The notes under the pieces are model-generated. The model did no database searches, was not told where the DNA came from, and was given only the letters and a program-made list of their open reading frames with translations. 64,000 nucleotides of DNA from Chloroflexota bacterium (lineage in GTDB: Bacteria > Chloroflexota > Dehalococcoidia > Lucifugimonadales > UBA3495): positions 30,392 through 94,391 of the forward strand of contig JAPPCX010000039.1 in assembly GCA_028875655.1 (NCBI GenBank), given 5' to 3'. Each line of letters opens with the position of its first letter. Positions within the stretch are counted from its first letter, which is position 1. Below are positions 12,671 through 30,315 of this stretch, piece by piece. The position numbers were made by a program, and so were the translations under genes.

Positions 12671-13618
12671 TCAACGCTTCCGCTTGATGGCGCGCAGGGC
12701 GGCCTGTTCGACGCCATGGGCGGTGAGTCCGTTCTTGGCCATCAGCTCATTGGCCGGGCCGGAACCGGTGTAGCCATGCAATGCCACCATCTCGACCGGC
12801 ACGGGTTGATTTCGCGCCACAACACCCGCCACTATACTGCCCAGCCCGCCGTGCACATAGTGCTCCTCGGCGGTCACGATTGCGCCCGTCTCATGTGCCG
12901 CCGCGATGATGGCGGGCTCGTCGGCGGGGGCCAGGGTGTGCAGGTTGATCACCCGTGCCTGGATTCCCTGGCCGGAGAGGCTCTCGGCGGCGTCCAGGGC
13001 CGGCGCAACCAGCGAACCGCAGGCGATGATGCTTACGTCGCTCCCCTCACGCATCACCTCCCCCTCCCCCATACGGAACCGGTAGCCGTCGGTGTGGACT
13101 ACCGGAGTCGCGGCCCGGGGCAGCCGGACGTAGAGCGGACCTTGCATAGTTGCCGCGCTGCGAATGACCTGCTCGGTTTCCGGCGCGTCCGCAGGCGTCA
13201 CTACGCTGAAAGAAGGCAACGCGCACATCAGCGACAGGTCTTCGATGCTGTGGGCGGACATGCCGTCTTCGCCGGTCAGGATGCCGGCGTGGGTGCAGAT
13301 CAGTTTCACGTTCAGCGACGGTTGCGACACCAACACCCGAAGTTGATCGTACGGACGTCCAGTCCCGAATACGCTGAACGTGCTCACGAATGGGATCTTC
13401 CCGGCAGCGGCCAGGCCGGCCGCCACGCCAACGATGTTCTGCTCTGCCGGCCCGAAGTCGAAAAACCGGTCGGGGTACTGGTCGCGCCAGAGATGGACAA
13501 AAGTGGAGACGTTTAAATCCCCACCCAGCACTACGATGTCGGGGTGTTCTTCCGCCATCGTGAGCAGGGTGCGGCCATAGGTTTCGCGGGTTGCCGCCGA
13601 TTGACGGTTGGTAGTCAT
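12671..13618 (-). CDS. transketolase, C-terminal (pyrimidine-binding) subunit
   Basis: The start is trimmed to ATG 13618 (MTTNRQSAATRETYG), which overlaps the TGA of the upstream subunit (ATGA). The FGPAEQN motif is present. Confidence 0.85.
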   Translation of the reverse strand: MTTNRQSAATRETYGRTLLTMAEEHPDIVVLGGDLNVSTFVHLWRDQYPDRFFDFGPAEQNIVGVAAGLAAAGKIPFVSTFSVFGTGRPYDQLRVLVSQPSLNVKLICTHAGILTGEDGMSAHSIEDLSLMCALPSFSVVTPADAPETEQVIRSAATMQGPLYVRLPRAATPVVHTDGYRFRMGEGEVMREGSDVSIIACGSLVAPALDAAESLSGQGIQARVINLHTLAPADEPAIIAAAHETGAIVTAEEHYVHGGLGSIVAGVVARNQPVPVEMVALHGYTGSGPANELMAKNGLTAHGVEQAALRAIKRKR

Positions 13619-14442
13619 CAGGCCAGCTCCTTGAGGGCCGCTTCGTATTCGTCGGCGGTGGGCGCGCGCCCGTGAAAGCCCGGGTTGTTTTCCATGAAGC
13701 TGACGCCCTTGCCCTTGACGGTATCGGCGATGATCACGGTGGGGCCGCCGTCCGTCGCCTCGCTGAGGGCATGGAGCACGTCGGCGTGCTCGTGGCCGTC
13801 GCATGAGATCACGTTCCAGCCAAAATCGCGCCAACGGTCGGCCAGGGGTTCCAGCGTCATCACCTCATCGGTGAACCGGTCGTTTTGGATGCGGTTGCGG
13901 TCAATGATGGCGGTGAGGTTGTCGGCGCCGTGGTGTGCCGCGGACATGGCCGCTTCCCACACTTCTCCCTCCTGGCACTCCCCGTCGCCCAGCAGGGCAA
14001 ACACCCGGTAGTTGCGGCCGTCCAGCCTGGCGGCCAGCGCGTGGCCCAGCGCGAACGAAAGCCCCATACCCAGGGACCCTGAGTTCATCTCGACGCCGGG
14101 AGTTATTGGATGAGCATGGCCCTGGAGCAGCCCATCGGTTTTCCGGTACGACGACAGTTCGGACGCCGGGAAGTAACCCGCGCGAGCCAGCGTTACGTAG
14201 AAACCCGGCGAGGCGTGTCCTTTGCTGAGCACAAACCGGTCCCGCTCCGGCCAGTCGGGCGCGCCGGGGTCGTACCGCAGCACGCCAAAATACAGCGAGA
14301 TCAGGATGTCTATCTCGGAGAGAGAGCCGCCCGTGTGTCCGCTGCCGGCGTCGAAAATCATTTTCAGAATTTCGCGTCGTGATTCGAGGGCGGCGGCGCG
14401 CATCTCCTCGACGGTCAACATCGGTTGTGTCACTACGGCCAA
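13618..14442 (-). CDS. transketolase, N-terminal (TPP-binding) subunit
   Basis: 274 aa. GHTGGSLS, LSKGHA and GDGECQEGEVWEA are TPP-binding motifs. Confidence 0.85.
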   Translation of the reverse strand: MAVVTQPMLTVEEMRAAALESRREILKMIFDAGSGHTGGSLSEIDILISLYFGVLRYDPGAPDWPERDRFVLSKGHASPGFYVTLARAGYFPASELSSYRKTDGLLQGHAHPITPGVEMNSGSLGMGLSFALGHALAARLDGRNYRVFALLGDGECQEGEVWEAAMSAAHHGADNLTAIIDRNRIQNDRFTDEVMTLEPLADRWRDFGWNVISCDGHEHADVLHALSEATDGGPTVIIADTVKGKGVSFMENNPGFHGRAPTADEYEAALKELA

Positions 14443-23498: not shown

Positions 23499-23924
23499 AT
23501 GCTGACCGACGCGCAACGGGATTTTCTGTCCCGAAACCACAACGGGGCGCTGACCACGTTCCGCCGCAATGGAGCGGCGCAGATGAGCATTGTCACCTGC
23601 GGCATTTATGGCGACGGGGTGGCGTTCACCACCACCGAGGACCGGGCCAAGTTGCGGAACCTGCGGCGGGATCCGCGCTGCACCATCCTGGTGGGCACCG
23701 ACGACTGGCGCAACTTCGTGGTGCTGGAGGGCGAAGCCAAGCTGTTCGGCGTCGATAACACCAGCGCCGACGAATACCGGGAAACGCTGCGCAACGTGTA
23801 CCGCACCGCGGCCGGGCAGGAACACCCCAACTGGCCGGAGTACGACCAGGCGATGCGGGACGACCGGCGCTACGGTATCATCGTGACGCCGACCCACGTT
23901 TACGGGCGGACGGATCTCAGATGA
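23499..23924 (+). CDS. PPOX-class (pyridoxamine 5'-phosphate oxidase fold) probable F420-dependent enzyme
   Basis: 141 aa. FLSRNHNGALTTFRRNGAAQMSIV...DPRCTILV is the typical family pattern. AAGGAG SD. Confidence 0.7.
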   Translation: MLTDAQRDFLSRNHNGALTTFRRNGAAQMSIVTCGIYGDGVAFTTTEDRAKLRNLRRDPRCTILVGTDDWRNFVVLEGEAKLFGVDNTSADEYRETLRNVYRTAAGQEHPNWPEYDQAMRDDRRYGIIVTPTHVYGRTDLR

Positions 23925-26199
23925 TGCCTTCGGCCAACCGCAGGGCCTCCACGTCGAAGGGGATTTCGTCGTAGTCGCCGTTGAGGGCGGCCAGGACGCG
24001 CTCGCCGGACAGGGGCAGTTGCTTGACCCGCACGCCCACGGCGTCGTACACGGCGTTGGCGATGGCGGCGGGCGGCCCGAAGCCGGGCGGCTCAGCGACG
24101 GCGCGCGCGCCAAACGGCCCATCTTCGGCCGGCACCCGGATCAGCACGTCTTCGATTTCCGGCAGGTCGATTGCCAGGGGCATGAGGTAGGACGCAAATG
24201 ACGGGTTGCGCACCGCGCCGTTGTCGGGATCAAACTGCTGGTCCTCGGTGAGGGCGCGTCCGATGCCCTGCACCACGCCGCCGTCGAGCTGGCCCTCCAC
24301 GGCCATGGGGTTGATGGCAACGCCCACGTCCTGGGCCTGAACGTAGCGCAGCAACTTGATCTGCCCGGTATCCCGGTCAACCTTGACCTCGGCGGCCTGG
24401 GTGGCGAACACCGGCGTGTAGGGCATGCTGGACAGCGCAGCCGTCCCGATGATCGGCCCGCCGCGAGAGGTGATGCTGGCGGCTGCGAGTTGGGCGAAGG
24501 TCAAACCCTGGGGTTCGTTATCCATCACGTACACCCGGCCGTCCTCGCAGCCCAGCGCATCCTCGGGGACTCCCAGGCGTTCGGCGGCCAGGGCCATCAG
24601 CTTCTGGACGGTGTCCTCGGCGGCGCGCTGCACTGCGGTGCCCTGGCTGTACACGACGCGGCTGCCGCCGGACTGGCCGGTGTAAGGGGCCATGTCGGTA
24701 TCCCGCTTGGCGACGATGACGCTGCCCATGGGAATGCCCAGGGCCTCGGCGGCGATGGCGGCCAGCGACGTGTCGCTGCCGGAAATGTCGGTGGAGCCGG
24801 TGAGCAAGCTCACCGTGCCGTCGTCGTTGACGCTGATGGCGGCGGTGGACGGGCCGCTGCCGCTGCGCCATTCGCAGAGGGCCAGGCCCAAACCGTGCCC
24901 GTCCTCAAGCTGACGCGGCCATTCCATCTTTTCCTTGATGGCCTCCAGCGTCTCGATCAGGCCGTTGGACGGGACGACCGCGCCGCTGACCGATACGTCG
25001 CCCTCGCGCAGGGCGTTGTGGAGGCGCAGGTCGTAGGGGTCCATGCCGATTTGCTGGGCGATGTGGTCCATGTGGGACTCGACGGCGAAGGTCATGTCGG
25101 CGACGCCGGAGGCGCGGTAGGACCCGACGTAGATCTTGTTGGTGTACACACCGTATGAACGCAGCCGGAAGTTGGGTATCCGGTACGCGCCGATGCCGTG
25201 ACCAATGCCGGAGTTGGGGCCGGCACCGAGATACGCGCCCACGTCGAAGATGGTGTAGGCTTCGCGGGCGACAATTGTACCGTCGTTCATCACGCCGGAG
25301 CGGACATAGTTGGTCACGGGCAGGCGCGGGCCGTTCATGGTGAATACTTCCTCGCGCGTGTTGACCAGCTTGACCGGGCGGCCCGTCCGCATGGCAAGGA
25401 GGGCCGGGAACGCCTCAAAAGCGAGCCGCAGCTTCGCGCCGAATCCGCCGCCCAGCTCCATGGGCACGATGCGGATGCGGGACACCGGCATTTCCAGCAC
25501 GGCGGCCAGGCCGGCGCGAATCTGGTACGGGCCCTGGGTGGATGCGTAAACCACCAAGCGGCCGCTGGGTTCCACGTCGGCGACGCAGGCCATGGGTTCC
25601 AGGAAGCCCTGATTGATGCCCTGGGAGCGATACACGTCCTCAACCACCACGTCGGCATCGCGGAACGCCTGCTCAACGTCGCCGCGATCGGCGTCCAGCA
25701 GAGTGCTGACGTTGTGGCCGAGCGTAAAGCCGTAGCCTTCGTAGCTCTCCAGTTCCGGATGGACGGAGGCCGCGCCTTCCACCATGGCCGATAGCGGGTT
25801 GACCACCGAAGGGATGTCCTCGTATTCAACCTTGATGAGCTCAATGGCTTCCTGAGCGGTGGCTTCATCATCGGCTGCGACGGCGGCGATGGGTTCGCCG
25901 ACGAAGTTAACTACCTCGCGGGGCATTACGTAGCGGTCGCGGAGCGCGCCGGACCCGAACCGTATATCGGGGAAGTCGGTTCCCGTGATTACGGCCCGCA
26001 CGCCGGGCAACGCGGCGGCCTCGCCGGTGTCGATGCTGACGATGCGGGCGTGGTTCCGCGCGCTGGGGAGCAGCTTGCACGCCAGCATACCGGGGAGGTA
26101 CACGTCGGAGGCGTAGGCGGCGCGGCCGGTCACCTTTTCGTAGGCGTCCACGCGGGGGTGGTTTTGTTCCAGGACTTTGAATTGGGTTGCGGTAGTCAT
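23917..26199 (-). CDS. xanthine dehydrogenase/aldehyde oxidase family molybdopterin-binding subunit (CoxL-like)
   Basis: The start is trimmed to ATG 26199 (MTTATQFKV, GGAGG upstream). The a/b hammerhead N-terminus is RVDAYEKVTGRAAYASD. The active-site loop GSYRASG is not the CODH form I VAYRCSFR motif. Confidence 0.85.
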   Translation of the reverse strand: MTTATQFKVLEQNHPRVDAYEKVTGRAAYASDVYLPGMLACKLLPSARNHARIVSIDTGEAAALPGVRAVITGTDFPDIRFGSGALRDRYVMPREVVNFVGEPIAAVAADDEATAQEAIELIKVEYEDIPSVVNPLSAMVEGAASVHPELESYEGYGFTLGHNVSTLLDADRGDVEQAFRDADVVVEDVYRSQGINQGFLEPMACVADVEPSGRLVVYASTQGPYQIRAGLAAVLEMPVSRIRIVPMELGGGFGAKLRLAFEAFPALLAMRTGRPVKLVNTREEVFTMNGPRLPVTNYVRSGVMNDGTIVAREAYTIFDVGAYLGAGPNSGIGHGIGAYRIPNFRLRSYGVYTNKIYVGSYRASGVADMTFAVESHMDHIAQQIGMDPYDLRLHNALREGDVSVSGAVVPSNGLIETLEAIKEKMEWPRQLEDGHGLGLALCEWRSGSGPSTAAISVNDDGTVSLLTGSTDISGSDTSLAAIAAEALGIPMGSVIVAKRDTDMAPYTGQSGGSRVVYSQGTAVQRAAEDTVQKLMALAAERLGVPEDALGCEDGRVYVMDNEPQGLTFAQLAAASITSRGGPIIGTAALSSMPYTPVFATQAAEVKVDRDTGQIKLLRYVQAQDVGVAINPMAVEGQLDGGVVQGIGRALTEDQQFDPDNGAVRNPSFASYLMPLAIDLPEIEDVLIRVPAEDGPFGARAVAEPPGFGPPAAIANAVYDAVGVRVKQLPLSGERVLAALNGDYDEIPFDVEALRLAEGII

Positions 26200-26272
26200 C
26201 GGTTGCCTCCGTGTCGGAGTTGGAGAGTAGAAGGCGCCGGGTAGTTCGTATGGGTTGCCACCCTCACCATAG

Positions 26273-26295
26273 CCCTCTCCCATCAAGGGAGAGGG
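26273..26295. repeat. hairpin CCCTCTCCC-ATCAA-GGGAGAGGG in coxS-coxL gap
   Basis: 9-bp perfect stem in the 116-nt intercistronic spacer. Confidence 0.6.
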
Positions 26296-26315
26296 GACAT
26301 TATCAGCTACGGTAA

Positions 26316-26792
26316 TCAGGCGGATGCTCGCATTTCGGCGGCGGCGGCCATGATTGCCTCCACCACGCGGTTGTAGCCCGTGCAGCGGCAGAGGTTCCCG
26401 CCGATGGCGAAACGAACATCCTCCTCGGTGGGGTCGGGATTGGCTTGCAGGAAGCCGGTGGCGGACATGATGAGGCCCGGGATGCAGAAGCCGCATTGCA
26501 GGCCGCCGTGATCGACGAAAGCTTTCTGCACCGGACTCAGTCCGTCCACGTCGGCCAAGCCTTCGATGGTGGTGATCTCGGAATCGTGGGCGCTGTGGGC
26601 GAGGACGAGGCAGGACGTGACGGGCTTGCCGTCCATCAGGACGGTACAAGCGCCGCAGTCGCCTTCATCGCAACCCTTTTTGGAGCCGGTCAGCCTGGCA
26701 TCGTCGCGCAGGCAATCCAGGAGAGAGTAGAAAGGTTCTACCAGGAGCAGGCGGTTTTCGCCATTTATGTTGAGTGTCAGGGGTTGTTTCAT
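26316..26792 (-). CDS. (2Fe-2S)-binding small subunit (CoxS-like)
   Basis: Plant-type cluster motif CDEGDCGACTV and second cluster CGFCIPG...CRCTGY. ATG 26792 (MKQPLTLNING) is preferred over TTG 26807. Confidence 0.9.
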   Translation of the reverse strand: MKQPLTLNINGENRLLLVEPFYSLLDCLRDDARLTGSKKGCDEGDCGACTVLMDGKPVTSCLVLAHSAHDSEITTIEGLADVDGLSPVQKAFVDHGGLQCGFCIPGLIMSATGFLQANPDPTEEDVRFAIGGNLCRCTGYNRVVEAIMAAAAEMRASA

Positions 26793-26815
26793 TTGGATCA
26801 ACCTCAAACTTCACG

Positions 26816-26884
26816 CCTGGATTCCCGCTTTCGCGGGAATGACGGTAGTGTGGGCGGGAATGACGGTGGGGAGCGGAATTACCC
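26816..26884. repeat. REP-like element family A: hairpin head GGATTCCCGCTTTCGCGGGAATGACGG + 2 tail units
   Basis: Stem ATTCCCGC/GCGGGAAT with loop TTTC, followed by GGGAATGACGG and GGAATTACC repeats at about 20-nt spacing. Confidence 0.85.
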
Positions 26885-26899
26885 AGTAGGATGAGCGTA

Positions 26900-26970
26900 G
26901 ATTCCGGCCCCGTATCAAGTACGGGGTGACGTTCTTTCGCCGGAATGACGGTGGGGGCAGCAATGACGGG
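26900..26970. repeat. REP-like element family A, composite form with nested inner hairpin
   Basis: GATTCCGGC[CCCGTATCAAGTACGGGG]TGACGTTCTTTCGCCGGAATGACGG. A near copy lies at 53440-53500. Confidence 0.8.
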
Positions 26971-26974
26971 GTAG

Positions 26975-27892
26975 TTACCAGGCGGTTTGGACGGCCAGGC
27001 GGCGGATGTCATCGTATGAGGGGGGATTGCCGGCGGTGGCGACGGCGTGGCTGAGCGTGCGCTCGGTGAGGACGCGCACCATCTCACGGCGGTAGTCTGC
27101 GCCGCTGCGCACGTCGGCGATGGGATTGCAGGATTGGGCGGCCAAGCGGCCGGCCTCGGCGATGTTGGCGGCATCCGGAATTTGGCCCACCAGCCGGCCC
27201 TCCGCGCCGTAGGCTCGCATGGGCGTAGGAGCGACGGCACCCAGTGCGATCCGCGCCGAGGCACAGGTTCCGTCGGCATTGAGGCTGACCACGGAGGCGA
27301 CGCCGACGGCCGAAATGTCCATCGCGCCGCGAGGACTGTGCTTGATGTACAACCCGCCGGTGTTCTCAGCCGGAGGGGGCAGCCGGATTTCGGTAAGAAT
27401 CTCGCCGGATTCCAGCGCCGTGCGGCCCGGGGCGACGAACACCTCGTCCATGGGCAGCCAACGCTCGCCTCCGGTTCCGATGATGCGGCACTGGGCGTTA
27501 TAGGCGAGTAGAGCCGGCAGGGTATCGCCGGCGGGGGAGGCATTGCACACGTTGCCGGCCACGGTGGCCAGGTTACGCACCTGCACGCCGGCGAACGCGG
27601 TTGCGCCGGCGACGAGCGCGGGGTAGCGGCTGCGAACGTCACCGTTCTGCTCAATGTCCTGGACAGTCGCCATGGCTCCGATGGACAGGCCATCGTCCGG
27701 GTTCCAGGTGATGTGGTCCAGGCCGGGGACGTGCTGCATACAAACTACGGAATCGGGTCGCCACACGCCGGTTCGCCAGCGAACCAGGAAATCGGTGCTG
27801 CCGGCGACGAGGCGAGTACTGTTTCCGCCGTCGGCCAGCATCCGGAGCGCCTCATCCAGGGAGCGCGGCTCCAGGTAGTCAAAACGAGCCAT
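26975..27892 (-). CDS. FAD-binding medium subunit of molybdopterin dehydrogenase (CoxM-like)
   Basis: MARFDYLEPRSLDEAL...AGSTDF is the typical FAD_binding_5 N-terminus. ATG 27892 has GGAGGG upstream. Confidence 0.85.
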   Translation of the reverse strand: MARFDYLEPRSLDEALRMLADGGNSTRLVAGSTDFLVRWRTGVWRPDSVVCMQHVPGLDHITWNPDDGLSIGAMATVQDIEQNGDVRSRYPALVAGATAFAGVQVRNLATVAGNVCNASPAGDTLPALLAYNAQCRIIGTGGERWLPMDEVFVAPGRTALESGEILTEIRLPPPAENTGGLYIKHSPRGAMDISAVGVASVVSLNADGTCASARIALGAVAPTPMRAYGAEGRLVGQIPDAANIAEAGRLAAQSCNPIADVRSGADYRREMVRVLTERTLSHAVATAGNPPSYDDIRRLAVQTAW

Positions 27893-28034
27893 CAAGCCCT
27901 CCAACTCCGGCGCGGTAGTTGCTGGGAAAAGGGAGTCAGCGGATCATTCCCGGATGCGCCGGAACGGTTGGATTATAGGGTTGGGCGGCGAAAGCGGTCA
28001 ACGCTGTCCACCGCTGTCACCCAAGCGGACAAAG

Positions 28035-28063
28035 GTAGGGGCGGGTTTCAGACCCGCCCCTAC
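28035..28063. repeat. palindrome family B GTAGGGGCGGGTTTCAGACCCGCCCCTAC
   Basis: Second copy of the 11386-11414 element, lying between the coxM-like start and the stop of the fusion gene. Confidence 0.7.
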
Positions 28064-28084: not shown

Positions 28085-30181
28085 CTACCGGCCGTTGCCG
28101 TAGGGCTGGATTAGGACGCGGAGGGTGCCGTCGTTCTCCTTGCGCTGGGTGAGGAGCTTGTGGCCGGCCTGCTCGGTCCAGTAGATGACGTCGTAGATGT
28201 TGAGGGCGTCGTGGAGGATGGCCTCGATGAAGGACGTGCGGTCGTACTCCATCTGGCGGCTGAGGGCGGCGATGACGCCGGCACAGTTCTTGCCGCGCCC
28301 GTCGATTATCGTCCATCCGCTGCCGTTCTGGTGGCCGTTGCCGCTACCATTTCCATTATGAGCGACGCCTACGGGGGCGCGGACGTCGATCTGGCCGCTC
28401 TTGCGCAGGTCGAGCTGCTCTTTGAAGTAGGCGACCGCCTCCCACGCGACGGCCCGGTCGCGCTCGCCGCTGGAGCATACTGCGCCGCGGACTCCGACGA
28501 TGTCGGGGTTGATGCGGGCCAGTTCGTCCAGGTTTTCCAGCTTCAGGTGTCCGCTGAGCGCGGTGCTCAGACCGGCCGCCTTGGCCTCCATGACCATGTC
28601 GCGCAGCACCGGTTCGGGCATGAAGTCGAACAGGTTCCGCCCGTCCTTGGTGAGCGTGTCGATGAGGAAGCCGTCGCACTCGCCGTCTTTGGCCAGTTGC
28701 ACCATCAGGTGCGGGTCAAGCCCACCGTCAAAGAGCAGGTTGTCCGCGAAGAGGGACCCGATGAGCTTGGTTTCAGCGTTGCCGATGGCGGCGCGGGACT
28801 CGCGGAGGACTTCAACGGCGGTTTCGTAGTCGGCAACCTGGAAACCCACTTTGACCGAGGTGGCGTCCATCATGGTGGCCGCGTGGACAGCCATAGCCAC
28901 GGTGCCCGGCTGGTTGGGAACGACGCCGAGGGTAACGCTGACGTGCTTGTGGGGCGGGATAATCTCCCGCACTTCCCGGACCAGACTGGGATGGGCGGAA
29001 CCCACCAACGCTTCTTGCAGGTTTTTCAAATCGATGATGTCGGCGCCGCCCCGGTCGGCTTCCAGCGCCTCGGCTTTGTTTTGAGCGCTGACCAACAGCA
29101 TCATGCCGGACCCTTCGAGGTCCAAGTGGCGGCCGGGCTCGCGGTTGCCGTTGAGCCAGGGAGCGTGGGGCCGACCGTGGATGACCTCGCGTTGCGGCTC
29201 TCGGGAAACGGTGGGACGTGGAATCAAGGGTTCCAGTTCCCGCCATAGCGCGCCCTTTTGCTCATCGGTGAGGTCGGTCAGCGGGGCGCGGACGCTGCCG
29301 CCGGCCATGCCCATCATCTCGCCCCAGGCCTTGCACATGGACACAGGCAGTGCGCCGCCGGTCTTCTTCATGGTGCCGCCCCACCACTTGTCGGACAACG
29401 CCTTGATGTCCTTGAGGTGGCGGTTGTAAAACTCCACGTCCAGGTCGCCGGCGGTGGCGCGGTCAATGAACTGCGTGTAGTAGTTGTGCAGCGGGGTGTC
29501 GAAGCGCCAGTCAGAGGTGTTGGCGAACATCACCTGCTGGTGAAATCCCAATTCTCTGGCCTTGTGGAATATCCACTCGTCGGGCGTGCTGATGATGGCA
29601 TCGCGGCCGACCAGTAGGTGCGTCTCGATGGAGATCTGCTGGTTAAAGCTGGCTTCCTTGACGCCGACCACGTTGGGGATGGCGCAGAGGCGCTTGAGAC
29701 CCTGGGGGCTGATGGTGATACCGAACTGCGGAGAGTTATAGAACATCATCGCCAAGTCGGTGCTGTCGGCGACCTGCGCCACGAAATCCACGACCTGATC
29801 CTCGGTCTTGGTGACCATGTAAGACGGTGCGATGATCAGCAGGTCAAACCCACGATCCTGGGCGTGCTCGGCCAACGCGATGCTCTCTTTAAGCGACGTA
29901 TCCGTAACGTGCGCGCCAATCAACCAGCGACCGGCGGCTTCATCAGCGACGGTATCCATCACGAGGCGGCGTTCGGCTTCGGTCAGGCTCCAGAATTCGC
30001 CCATGTTCCAAGTGCAGCCACCGCCGCGAACGCCGAGACTCTGGACGTGCCGGATGTTGCTGCGGAGTCCTTCGGTATCGACCCGGTTATCGGGGGTAAA
30101 GGGTGTGACCAGCGTCGTCCACTGCCCTTTCAGGGTTTGCCACGCCCATTCCTGGGCTTCATGCTTGCGGTAACCGGCCAT
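28085..30181 (-). CDS. tri-domain fusion: DapA-family class I aldolase + MfnB-like (DUF556) 4-HFC-P synthase + TusA-like domain
   Basis: One uninterrupted ORF. The N-terminal ~330 aa have a DapA-like pattern (TPFTPD..., Schiff-base Lys context VVGVKEAS). The middle ~240 aa match MfnB (GGADIIDLKN, FLIDTLTKDGRNLFDF, IVGVRGAVC). The last ~75 aa are TusA-like (IIDGRGKNCAGVIAAL...AGHKLL...DGTLRVLI). ATG 30181 has GGAGG upstream. Confidence 0.7.
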   Translation of the reverse strand: MAGYRKHEAQEWAWQTLKGQWTTLVTPFTPDNRVDTEGLRSNIRHVQSLGVRGGGCTWNMGEFWSLTEAERRLVMDTVADEAAGRWLIGAHVTDTSLKESIALAEHAQDRGFDLLIIAPSYMVTKTEDQVVDFVAQVADSTDLAMMFYNSPQFGITISPQGLKRLCAIPNVVGVKEASFNQQISIETHLLVGRDAIISTPDEWIFHKARELGFHQQVMFANTSDWRFDTPLHNYYTQFIDRATAGDLDVEFYNRHLKDIKALSDKWWGGTMKKTGGALPVSMCKAWGEMMGMAGGSVRAPLTDLTDEQKGALWRELEPLIPRPTVSREPQREVIHGRPHAPWLNGNREPGRHLDLEGSGMMLLVSAQNKAEALEADRGGADIIDLKNLQEALVGSAHPSLVREVREIIPPHKHVSVTLGVVPNQPGTVAMAVHAATMMDATSVKVGFQVADYETAVEVLRESRAAIGNAETKLIGSLFADNLLFDGGLDPHLMVQLAKDGECDGFLIDTLTKDGRNLFDFMPEPVLRDMVMEAKAAGLSTALSGHLKLENLDELARINPDIVGVRGAVCSSGERDRAVAWEAVAYFKEQLDLRKSGQIDVRAPVGVAHNGNGSGNGHQNGSGWTIIDGRGKNCAGVIAALSRQMEYDRTSFIEAILHDALNIYDVIYWTEQAGHKLLTQRKENDGTLRVLIQPYGNGR

Positions 30182-30315
30182 TTTAGTCAGCCTCCAACAG
30201 CAGTTGTCTTGCGTGAACCAATGGCGAGACACGCCAAAGGCGCGACCCGATTGGTCGAGAACAGTTTAAGCGGGCGGGCGGGCCGCCGTCAAATAAGGGC
30301 GATTCGGGGAAACCA

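Follow-up and report, generated by a model that had tools for sequence, protein, structure and literature searches.

A conserved protein of SAR202-type Dehalococcoidia joins two Schiff-base barrels to a predicted TusA-fold cysteine domain

We analysed a 64,000-nucleotide stretch of DNA from a Chloroflexota bacterium (contig JAPPCX010000039.1, assembly GCA_028875655.1; hereafter, the window), in which one gene encodes a fusion of a DHDPS-like barrel, an MfnB-like barrel and a TusA-like domain. The complete coding sequence (P0001), as judged from the open frame, the Pfam matches and the N-termini of homologues, occupies positions 28085-30181 of the minus strand and consists of 698 codons, from the ATG at 30181 to the last sense codon ending at 28088, closed by a TAG stop codon at 28087-28085. 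A preliminary description of this DNA had reported the frame without naming its strand; the frame is open as reported, on the minus strand only, and the plus-strand reading is interrupted by stops. A domain search with Pfam placed DHDPS at residues 18-314 (E 7e-31, 107.5 bits), 4HFCP_synth (MfnB, PF04476) at residues 362-584 (E 5e-55, 187 bits, cut-off 22.4 bits) and TusA (PF01206) at residues 625-692 (E 1.3e-3, 18.9 bits, below the cut-off of 28.6 bits), in agreement with the earlier claims of a single three-part polypeptide and of a middle domain that belongs to the MfnB family. All of the motifs quoted at that stage were found, namely VGVKEAS (K175), ADIIDLKN (K386), LIDTLTKDG (K512), GVRGAVC (C569), DGRGKNCAG (C633), GHKLL and DGTLRVLI; the catalytic lysine contexts are retained, and the C-terminal cysteine is kept with the usual CP changed to CA.

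From its N-terminus, the protein comprises a DHDPS/NAL-family (beta/alpha)8 barrel (residues 18-314; 29240-30130, minus strand, as for all parts of the gene), delimited by Pfam, PDB alignments and invariance; a variable proline-rich linker (residues 315-359; 29105-29239); the MfnB-like (PF04476) barrel (residues 360-590; 28412-29104), delimited by Pfam, alignment to PDB 4rc1 and invariance; a variable glycine/asparagine-rich linker (residues 591-620; 28322-28411); and the putative TusA/YeeD-fold domain (residues 621-693; 28103-28321), assigned from the Pfam match (1.3e-3), an AlphaFold2 (AF2) model, Foldseek and an invariant cysteine. The predicted local distance difference test score (pLDDT) falls below 50 for residues 323-358 and 603-623 in the two linkers, and the full-length AF2 model of the fusion has a pLDDT of 69.5 and a predicted template modelling score (pTM) of 0.47, at which the arrangement of the domains is not reliable. 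Across an alignment of 178 fusions, the mean column identity was 0.75, 0.82 and 0.82 for the three domains, compared with 0.45 and 0.49 for the linkers, and K175, Y148, K386, K444, K512, C569 and C633 are invariant. The alignment indicates purifying selection of equal strength on all three parts. Each of them is a member of a known superfamily, while the joined system of two Schiff-base barrels and a TusA-fold cysteine has no described precedent; its reaction is probably new.

The DHDPS-like barrel retains the Schiff-base lysine K175 in VGVKEAS (codon 29657-29659) and the tyrosine of the Y-N-x-P motif (Y148, in FYNSPQFG), both invariant in the 178 fusions and in the archaeal and split partners. 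It resembles the DHDPS/NAL class I aldolases (DapA, NanA, KdgD, archaeal KD(P)G aldolase and the NahE-type hydratase-aldolases) in its barrel fold, the lysine of V-G-[VI]-K-E-[AS] and this tyrosine. In contrast to that family, it lacks the equivalents of the T44/Y107 proton relay. In the PDB alignments the GTTGE loop has become W-N-M-G-E and the YY pair YM, with T44, T45 and Y107 of DapA aligned to N59, M60 and M122, and both the loop that binds the pyruvate carboxylate and the tyrosine of the neighbouring subunit are missing. Because the threonines of GTTGE and the second tyrosine of the YY pair are lost, this sequence need not catalyse a classical pyruvate aldolase reaction; the first assignment to a DapA/HBPHA-type aldolase holds for the Schiff-base lysine and the YN.P tyrosine and fails for these other residues. 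The replacement motif W-x-M-G-E-F-W is itself invariant from the fusions through the archaeal stand-alone proteins, and further invariant motifs (ANTSDWRFD, WW and K..WGE..GM) are specific to the family. Since the altered loop and the family-specific motifs are invariant from fusions to archaeal stand-alone proteins, the barrel is a specialised enzyme and not a decayed one. The domain scored 78.9 bits with TIGR00674 (DapA), against a cut-off of 206 bits, and matched NF040954 weakly. A role as DapA was rejected on the basis of this score and of a genuine dapA on another contig of the genome (C120:4349-5197, 312 bits), which lies beside a dapB-like match.

The MfnB-like barrel aligns over its full length with MJ1099 of M. 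jannaschii (PDB 4rc1; 1.6e-43, 152 bits, domain residues 6-223), and D25, K27, K85, D151, K155 and R217 of MJ1099 correspond to D384, K386, K444, D508, K512 and R574, all retained; R217 belongs to the capping loop. In addition, the MfnB-type catalytic and substrate residues are invariant across alignments of 178 fusions and of 61 sequences. As aligned, the barrel keeps every residue that MfnB chemistry is known to need, that is, two Schiff-base/substrate lysines, two aspartates and the phosphate-binding arginine. The roles of the catalytic residues of MfnB have been described, and the enzyme has two sites for glyceraldehyde 3-phosphate (GA3P): at site 1 phosphate is eliminated to leave the enzyme-bound enol of methylglyoxal, and site 2 carries out a TIM-like step, with aldol condensation and cyclisation afterwards (PMC11365854). 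The module barrel is like MfnB (MJ1099; PF04476; PDB 4RC1/4U9P) in its TIM-barrel class I aldolase fold and its catalytic residues, and differs from the stand-alone MfnBs in being only about 36-46% identical to them and on a separate long branch. In the PF04476 tree the module barrels cluster tightly, with a long stem (0.78) leading to their clade, and the sister of this clade is an ordinary MfnB (P0257) that adjoins a GHMP kinase and a pyridoxal decarboxylase. The scores with the NCBIfam equivalog models were below their cut-offs (NF002573, 190.6 bits vs 341; NF002575, 177.2 bits vs 304). Unlike MfnB, the module barrel is always joined or adjacent to the TusA-like cysteine domain and the DHDPS-like barrel, and its carriers lack Ftr and other users of methanofuran. 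Ftr is the universal user of formylmethanofuran. A PF01913 search over 51 carrier genomes (the window's genome and 50 others), with positive methanogen controls, found Ftr in 0/51, and the sole MfnA-like match in the window's genome is weak (25% identity). A methanofuran role was rejected on these two counts, and the absence of methanofuran and tetrahydromethanopterin genes that had been noticed in the window extends to the whole genome and to the 50 other carriers.

When the C-terminal domain was modelled alone with AF2 (pLDDT 84), it took a two-layer beta-alpha-beta-alpha-beta-beta topology in which C633 (codon 28283-28285) begins helix 1 (residues 633-646). The top Foldseek matches of this model were YeeD/TsuB 8k1r (E 9e-4), which handles thiosulfate, E. 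coli TusA 3lvj_C (TM 0.70/0.78, root mean square deviation 2.0), a partner of IscS, and the SirA-like 3hz7; 1dcj was matched as well. The cysteine is invariant in the 178 fusions and in the archaeal stand-alone proteins, although the domain is otherwise 18-31% identical between bacteria and archaea. The model thus predicts a TusA/YeeD fold with a single invariant cysteine in the carrier position. The domain shares with the TusA/YeeD(TsuB)/SirA-like carriers (PF01206; 3LVJ, 1DCJ, 8K1R, 3HZ7) the two-layer fold, the single cysteine at the start of helix 1 and a W/F....GH motif in helix 2. It differs from them in its cysteine motif, G-K-x-C-[AST]-G-[VIL]-I instead of C-P-x-P, in its 15-18% identity to the solved members, and in being joined to enzymes in the fusion rather than free-standing. 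PF01206 is recorded for many homologues of the fusion, and the archaeal stand-alone protein of locus L100 scores 27.0 bits. A search for stand-alone TusA-like proteins returned fragments of fusions only, and no sulfur donor partner of the IscS, DsrE or rhodanese type is conserved beside the module in the loci compared.

Full-length homologues fall into at least 499 clusters (68-95% identity), and a survey of species-representative genomes, many of which are closed chromosomes, gave more than 556 fusion loci; nearly all of the carriers are named as Dehalococcoidia, SAR202 or Chloroflexota. The fusion is not an assembly artefact, because Dehalococcoidia contain hundreds of such fusions at 64-95% identity, many in single-chromosome assemblies, and the idea that a frameshift had run separate genes together can be dropped. 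In a large SAR202-type group of Dehalococcoidia, the fused gene is the usual arrangement. The architecture had been presented as unfamiliar: it is not rare, with more than 556 loci and with split genes in archaea, and it is uncharacterised in the literature that we searched, where we also found nothing on bacterial PF04476 outside methylotrophs.

The same three parts also occur as separate genes. In some marine SAR202 lineages, a gene for a DHDPS-like protein of 323 amino acids is directly followed by a gene for an MfnB-TusA protein of 327 amino acids. Peat and soil contigs carry three genes in the order MfnB / TusA / DHDPS (loci L013, L095/L096, L101 and L119), and the flanks of such split contigs encode archaeal ThrRS editing domains, archaeal GluRS or L15e. 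At L103 an MfnB-TusA gene is accompanied by a convergent DHDPS gene, and at five loci (L100, L120, L121, L125 and L126) MfnB and TusA genes are followed by a class-III aminotransferase gene, with the DHDPS gene a few kb away. The stand-alone TusA-like gene of the split modules encodes 90-106 amino acids. The three parts, neighbours when split and fused in at least 178 proteins, are one functional unit.

The fusion is more conserved than IleRS in 26/26 loci with the gene order IleRS-Fpg-fusion (median identity to the window's copy, 85% vs 78%); in syntenic relatives, the Cox large subunit exceeds even the fusion in conservation (median 89%). Among the clustered open reading frames of 81 loci there was no universal neighbour. 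In one recurrent context (L042-L056 and L063-L078, studied as cluster representatives by inspection of their sequences), the fusion adjoins a spermidine synthase and an SpeH-type S-adenosylmethionine (SAM) decarboxylase in 15-19 Dehalococcoidia loci, with an acetyl-CoA synthetase upstream. In an even sample of 400 genomes of the window's phylum, the module was found only in the window's genome, together with one ordinary MfnB; the order- and class-level relatives shown among the sampled genomes are small (1.3-2.4 Mb). Because this sample held no other carrier and the relatives shown are small, the module is restricted to certain lineages with large genomes. It is possible that the window's lineage is oddly placed or that genomes of >=90% completeness under-sample the carriers.

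At the 5' end of the gene, the ATG at 30181 is the true start, because homologues begin with MA.Y.K.EAQ.WAW and a Shine-Dalgarno sequence GGAGG (30191-30195, minus) lies 9 nt upstream; a GTG at 30232 only lengthens the listed frame. Between fpg and the fusion gene there is a sigma-70-like promoter match, TTGACG-18-TAAACT (30263-30292, minus; 9/12 by consensus). We found no riboswitch or other Rfam leader element upstream of the gene in the window and in seven diverse loci. A GC-rich hairpin, GGGGCGGG-TCTGAAA-CCCGCCCC, with a perfect 8-bp stem and a 7-nt loop, begins 25 nt past the stop codon (28038-28060, minus). It lacks a T-run and may be a repeated palindromic element that acts as a transcript end. 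The next genes are the coxM-coxS-coxL-like genes of a molybdoenzyme (23917-27904, minus; Pfam), with coxM 180 nt downstream of the fusion gene and preceded by a promoter-like site of its own, TTGACC-18-TATAAT (27972-28001, minus; 11/12 by consensus). This neighbourhood had been offered as a hint of function. Since coxM has its own promoter match and the Cox genes adjoin the fusion only in the window's own lineage, CoxMSL is a separate, lineage-specific transcription unit without a functional link to the fusion, and the fusion gene is monocistronic in this window.

The best contextual lead to the function of the module is found in split loci. On L119, a 27-kb soil contig, the gene order is dsrA-dsrB-dsrM-dsrK / MfnB / TusA / DHDPS / Usp / TauE-family, followed further on by sat-DUF6955-aprB-aprA, and in its close relatives L095 and L096 the DHDPS-like gene is followed by adenosine 5'-phosphosulfate (APS) kinase. 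The aminotransferase gene that follows the module at the five loci named above has an overlapping or near-abutting frame and bears the JGI name taurine--2-oxoglutarate transaminase, and at L061 a SufU-like gene (by sequence reading) lies downstream of the module. The window's own genome (G000) contains aprA/aprB (C102:28577-31388, minus) and sat (C114:9758-10999, minus); its AprA and that of L119 share 56% identity, and dsrAB is absent from the genome. SAR202 bacteria have been described as breaking down organosulfur compounds and oxidising the sulfite thus set free via AprBA-Sat (PMC5864207). The aprA of SAR202 forms its own clade together with one archaeal sequence (PMC5864207), which is the same unusual phyletic pattern as that of the module.

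We tentatively favour the reading, to which we give a probability of roughly 0.4, that the fusion is the one-chain form of a three-component system that handles sulfur species on a triose-phosphate-like substrate. The MfnB-like barrel would perform an elimination or addition on a C3 phospho- or sulfo-aldehyde, and the candidate reactions are sulfolactaldehyde <-> sulfite + enzyme-bound enol-methylglyoxal and GA3P + sulfite -> sulfolactaldehyde + phosphate. The DHDPS-like barrel would provide a second Schiff-base step, in which aldol cleavage or condensation of a 2-oxo acid supplies or removes the C3 aldehyde, and the sulfur species, either sulfite (as Cys-S-SO3-) or sulfane sulfur, would reach or leave the active site on Cys633. 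The system may in this way be linked to the sulfite-oxidising AprBA-Sat enzymes of the cell and, in archaeal relatives, to Dsr. Sulfolactaldehyde is the sulfonate analogue of GA3P, and at C3 sulfite is both well suited as a Michael donor and able in principle to leave. Because in MfnB the phosphate at C3 of GA3P departs from an enamine bound to lysine, release or addition of sulfite by the module barrel on this analogue would be possible. The narrower proposal, that the module is a cofactor-free lysine-Schiff-base sulfo-triose lyase/synthase that exchanges sulfite for phosphate or eliminates sulfite at C3 (sulfolactaldehyde, GA3P) and hands the sulfite to the TusA-fold cysteine for AprBA-Sat or Dsr, is unlikely as it stands.

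Parts of this chemistry have counterparts elsewhere. Cys-S-sulfonate or Cys-thiosulfonate carriers are found in assimilatory APS reductase, in SoxYZ and in the TusA/DsrE and YeeD systems. In ThiG with ThiS-COSH and in BexX (2-thioglucose-6-P synthase), a lysine Schiff base forms on a sugar phosphate and is attacked by protein-bound sulfur, and by analogy these systems would be the closest mechanistic precedent for a barrel with a carrier cysteine; their barrels are unrelated to the module, and their carriers are ubiquitin-like thiocarboxylates, not TusA-fold cysteines. The window's genome has its own ThiG. Sulfite is added or released by ComA, cysteate synthase, SuyAB, Xsc and the KDSG aldolase/sulfolactaldehyde steps of the sulfo-Entner-Doudoroff pathway, which resemble the proposed chemistry in the elimination or addition of sulfite at C3 of a three-carbon carbonyl, and some relatives of the module lie near sat, apr, dsr and tauE. 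To our knowledge, none of the ComA, cysteate synthase, SuyAB, Xsc and KDSG aldolase families is homologous to any of the three module parts.

Several points weigh against the sulfur reading. The 80 Dehalococcoidia loci contain no dsr, apr, sat, cysC or tauE gene within 10 kb of the module, so the sulfur lead rests on a handful of related archaeal-type contigs, and the synteny within Dehalococcoidia is inconsistent (IleRS/Fpg/Cox, Acs/SpeE/SpeD, or PDT). The name "taurine transaminase" is automatic, and NCBIfam gives only a sub-threshold "hypothetical" model for that protein. The cysteine motif is C-x-G and not C-P, with a Pfam score below the threshold in the window's copy, and the AF2 prediction (pTM 0.47) gives no confident arrangement that would place Cys633 near either active site. 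We identified no sulfonate-specific residue change, and the phosphate-binding arginine is retained. Finally, such extreme conservation is more typical of biosynthetic housekeeping than of a catabolic desulfonating enzyme.

The main rival to the sulfur reading retains the chemistry of MfnB. The MfnB-like barrel would make 4-(hydroxymethyl)-2-furancarboxaldehyde phosphate from two GA3P, the DHDPS-like barrel would condense its aldehyde with pyruvate in the manner of NahE, and the TusA-like cysteine would deliver persulfide sulfur, giving a new furan- or thiophene-type, possibly thiol-bearing, molecule or cofactor other than methanofuran. All of the MfnB catalytic residues are kept, the sister of the module clade is the genuine-looking MfnB beside GHMP kinase and pyridoxal decarboxylase, an aminotransferase follows the module in some archaea as MfnC follows MfnB, and the housekeeping-like conservation suits a cofactor. 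Nevertheless, we consider this route doubtful: it has no known consumer, with Ftr in none of the carrier genomes, and we know of no furan or thiophene cofactor in the carrier organisms. The long stem and the sub-threshold equivalog scores (190 vs 341 bits) suggest a changed function, and the DHDPS-like part lacks the threonines that bind the pyruvate carboxylate. A furan-type or other triose-derived metabolite or cofactor, as first suggested in the preliminary description, is still conceivable, whereas the best contextual lead points to sulfite and organosulfur metabolism. Canonical MfnB activity in methanofuran synthesis, or service of the DHDPS-like part as the DapA of the cell, would fit the family-level Pfam matches and is practically untenable, given the Ftr and MfnA-like results (0/51; 25%) and the DapA scores (312 bits on C120 vs 78 bits here, cut-off 206). 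It is also improbable that no sulfur chemistry is involved, with a TusA-like domain that is structural, regulatory or oligomerising and barrels that form a sugar-acid/sugar-phosphate aldolase pair, for example a cleavage of the 2-keto-3-deoxy-(phospho)gluconate (KD(P)G) type that feeds a triose-phosphate-converting barrel. The weak TusA match (18.9 bits) without the CP motif, the inclusion of archaeal KD(P)G aldolases in the DHDPS family, with the weak NF040954 match of this domain, and the lack of sulfur genes in most genomic contexts are consistent with such a pair; what argues against it is a single cysteine invariant from bacteria to archaea at 18-31% domain identity, in a domain as conserved as the catalytic barrels (0.82) that persists as a separate gene of 90-106 amino acids inside the split module.

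Two further explanations draw on genes near the module or missing from its carriers. An accessory or ring-forming role in menaquinone biosynthesis is suggested by UbiD-UbiA-UbiX genes directly upstream of the fusion in L060 (identified by sequence motifs) and 6-7 kb away in marine split loci. We regard it as very unlikely, since DAHP synthase and both PF02621 proteins (MqnA/MqnD type) are encoded in the window's genome, so that the futalosine ring route is not missing, since the Ubi adjacency is absent in most lineages, and since it leaves the sulfur carrier without a role. The other explanation starts from isoprenoid synthesis. Dxr is present in 51/51 carrier genomes (50 above the cut-off and one frameshifted), and a full DXS (TIGR00204, >680 bits) is present in 15/51; many of the 36 carriers without canonical DXS, which include the window's genome, are closed chromosomes. 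Module-bearing bacteria have been reported to have only the methylerythritol phosphate (MEP) pathway (PMC6107057). The module might then be an alternative source of 1-deoxy-D-xylulose 5-phosphate (DXP), for example from a methylthio-pentulose phosphate derived from methylthioadenosine (MTA), with the cysteine removing the methylthio group, by analogy with the RLP/cupin MTA-isoprenoid shunt. MtnA is found in 46/51 carriers, the module adjoins SpeE/SpeD, which produce MTA, in 15-19 loci, and pyruvate and GA3P are the substrates of DXS. Against this, 15 carriers have both DXS and the module, and three lack both DXS and MtnA. Archaea use mevalonate, and the archaeal carriers should need no DXP. 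In addition, there is no plausible route from pyruvate and GA3P to DXP that is free of thiamine pyrophosphate (TPP), a heteromeric E1-type TPP enzyme would account more simply for the missing DXS, and a class II aldolase-family gene in the genome could consume methylthioribulose 1-phosphate. Taken together, these points make a DXP source highly improbable.

A housekeeping survey of the window's genome by tblastn with E. coli protein queries located Dxr (C94:4266-5363), IspD/IspF (C62:32388-34098) and IspH (C25:10551-11465). DXS was not found in this genome with the E. coli queries, and only the C-terminal half of Dxs matched split transketolase and E1-beta proteins. The split transketolase lies in the window itself, as N- and C-terminal subunits (12671-13834 and 13618-14442, both minus; NF004559, 312 and 287 bits), and is the best, though partial, match to E. 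coli Dxs in the genome; the two listed frames overlap, and the C-terminal subunit probably begins downstream of its listed start. The sole class II aldolase/adducin-family gene of the genome (C43:28076-28696, plus) lies about 1.7 kb before the start of the window and is 38% identical to FucA; it could be MtnB or an aldolase of the dihydroxyacetone phosphate shunt that consumes methylthioribulose 1-phosphate. A SAM-cycle cluster (C19:75663-81985, minus) contains mtnA, a gene for an arylsulfotransferase-like beta-propeller, mtnP, a gene for a rhodanese-domain protein, ahcY and metK; the genes other than mtnA were assigned by inspection.

The same genome was used to examine further candidate roles for the module. 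Replacement of the entry to the shikimate pathway was rejected, as the genome has a DAHP synthase (Pfam 286 bits, 49% identical to AroG), and replacement of menaquinone ring synthesis was rejected in view of the two PF02621 proteins. A new synthase of pyridoxal phosphate (C6 + C3 - CO2 = C8) was rejected because PdxS is present (364 bits), with PdxJ absent as expected. The idea of a new synthase of hydroxymethylpyrimidine (HMP) phosphate, which came from an absent ThiC and a nearby ThiD, was rejected because ThiC is present in 28/50 other carriers, and a stand-in for the NAD pathway was rejected because nadA, nadB and nadC are all present. The genome also has Pan, Rib and Moa enzymes. ThiC, ThiH, HemE, BioF, BioD and ThiI were not found in the window's genome by tblastn, and the BioB match was very weak; ThiF, ThiE, ThiD, ThiL and CyoE are present, as is ThiG. 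This gene content suggests an organism that is auxotrophic for HMP and biotin and makes heme by a route that does not involve HemE.

In the dark ocean, SAR202-type Dehalococcoidia rank among the most abundant bacteria. The fusion is one of their most conserved proteins, above IleRS, and yet it is without a published description. New chemistry is likely, because known folds, two Schiff-base barrels and a carrier cysteine, are combined here without precedent. The MEP pathway without a recognisable DXS in most carriers poses a separate question on how isoprenoid synthesis starts in these organisms. If the furan reading is true, the module would make a new cofactor or metabolite outside methanogens. 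If the sulfur lead is true, it would be a missing enzyme of marine and peat organosulfur cycling, and a sulfo-triose enzyme in particular would open a hitherto unknown way into or out of the organosulfonate pool for SAR202 bacteria and some peat archaea.

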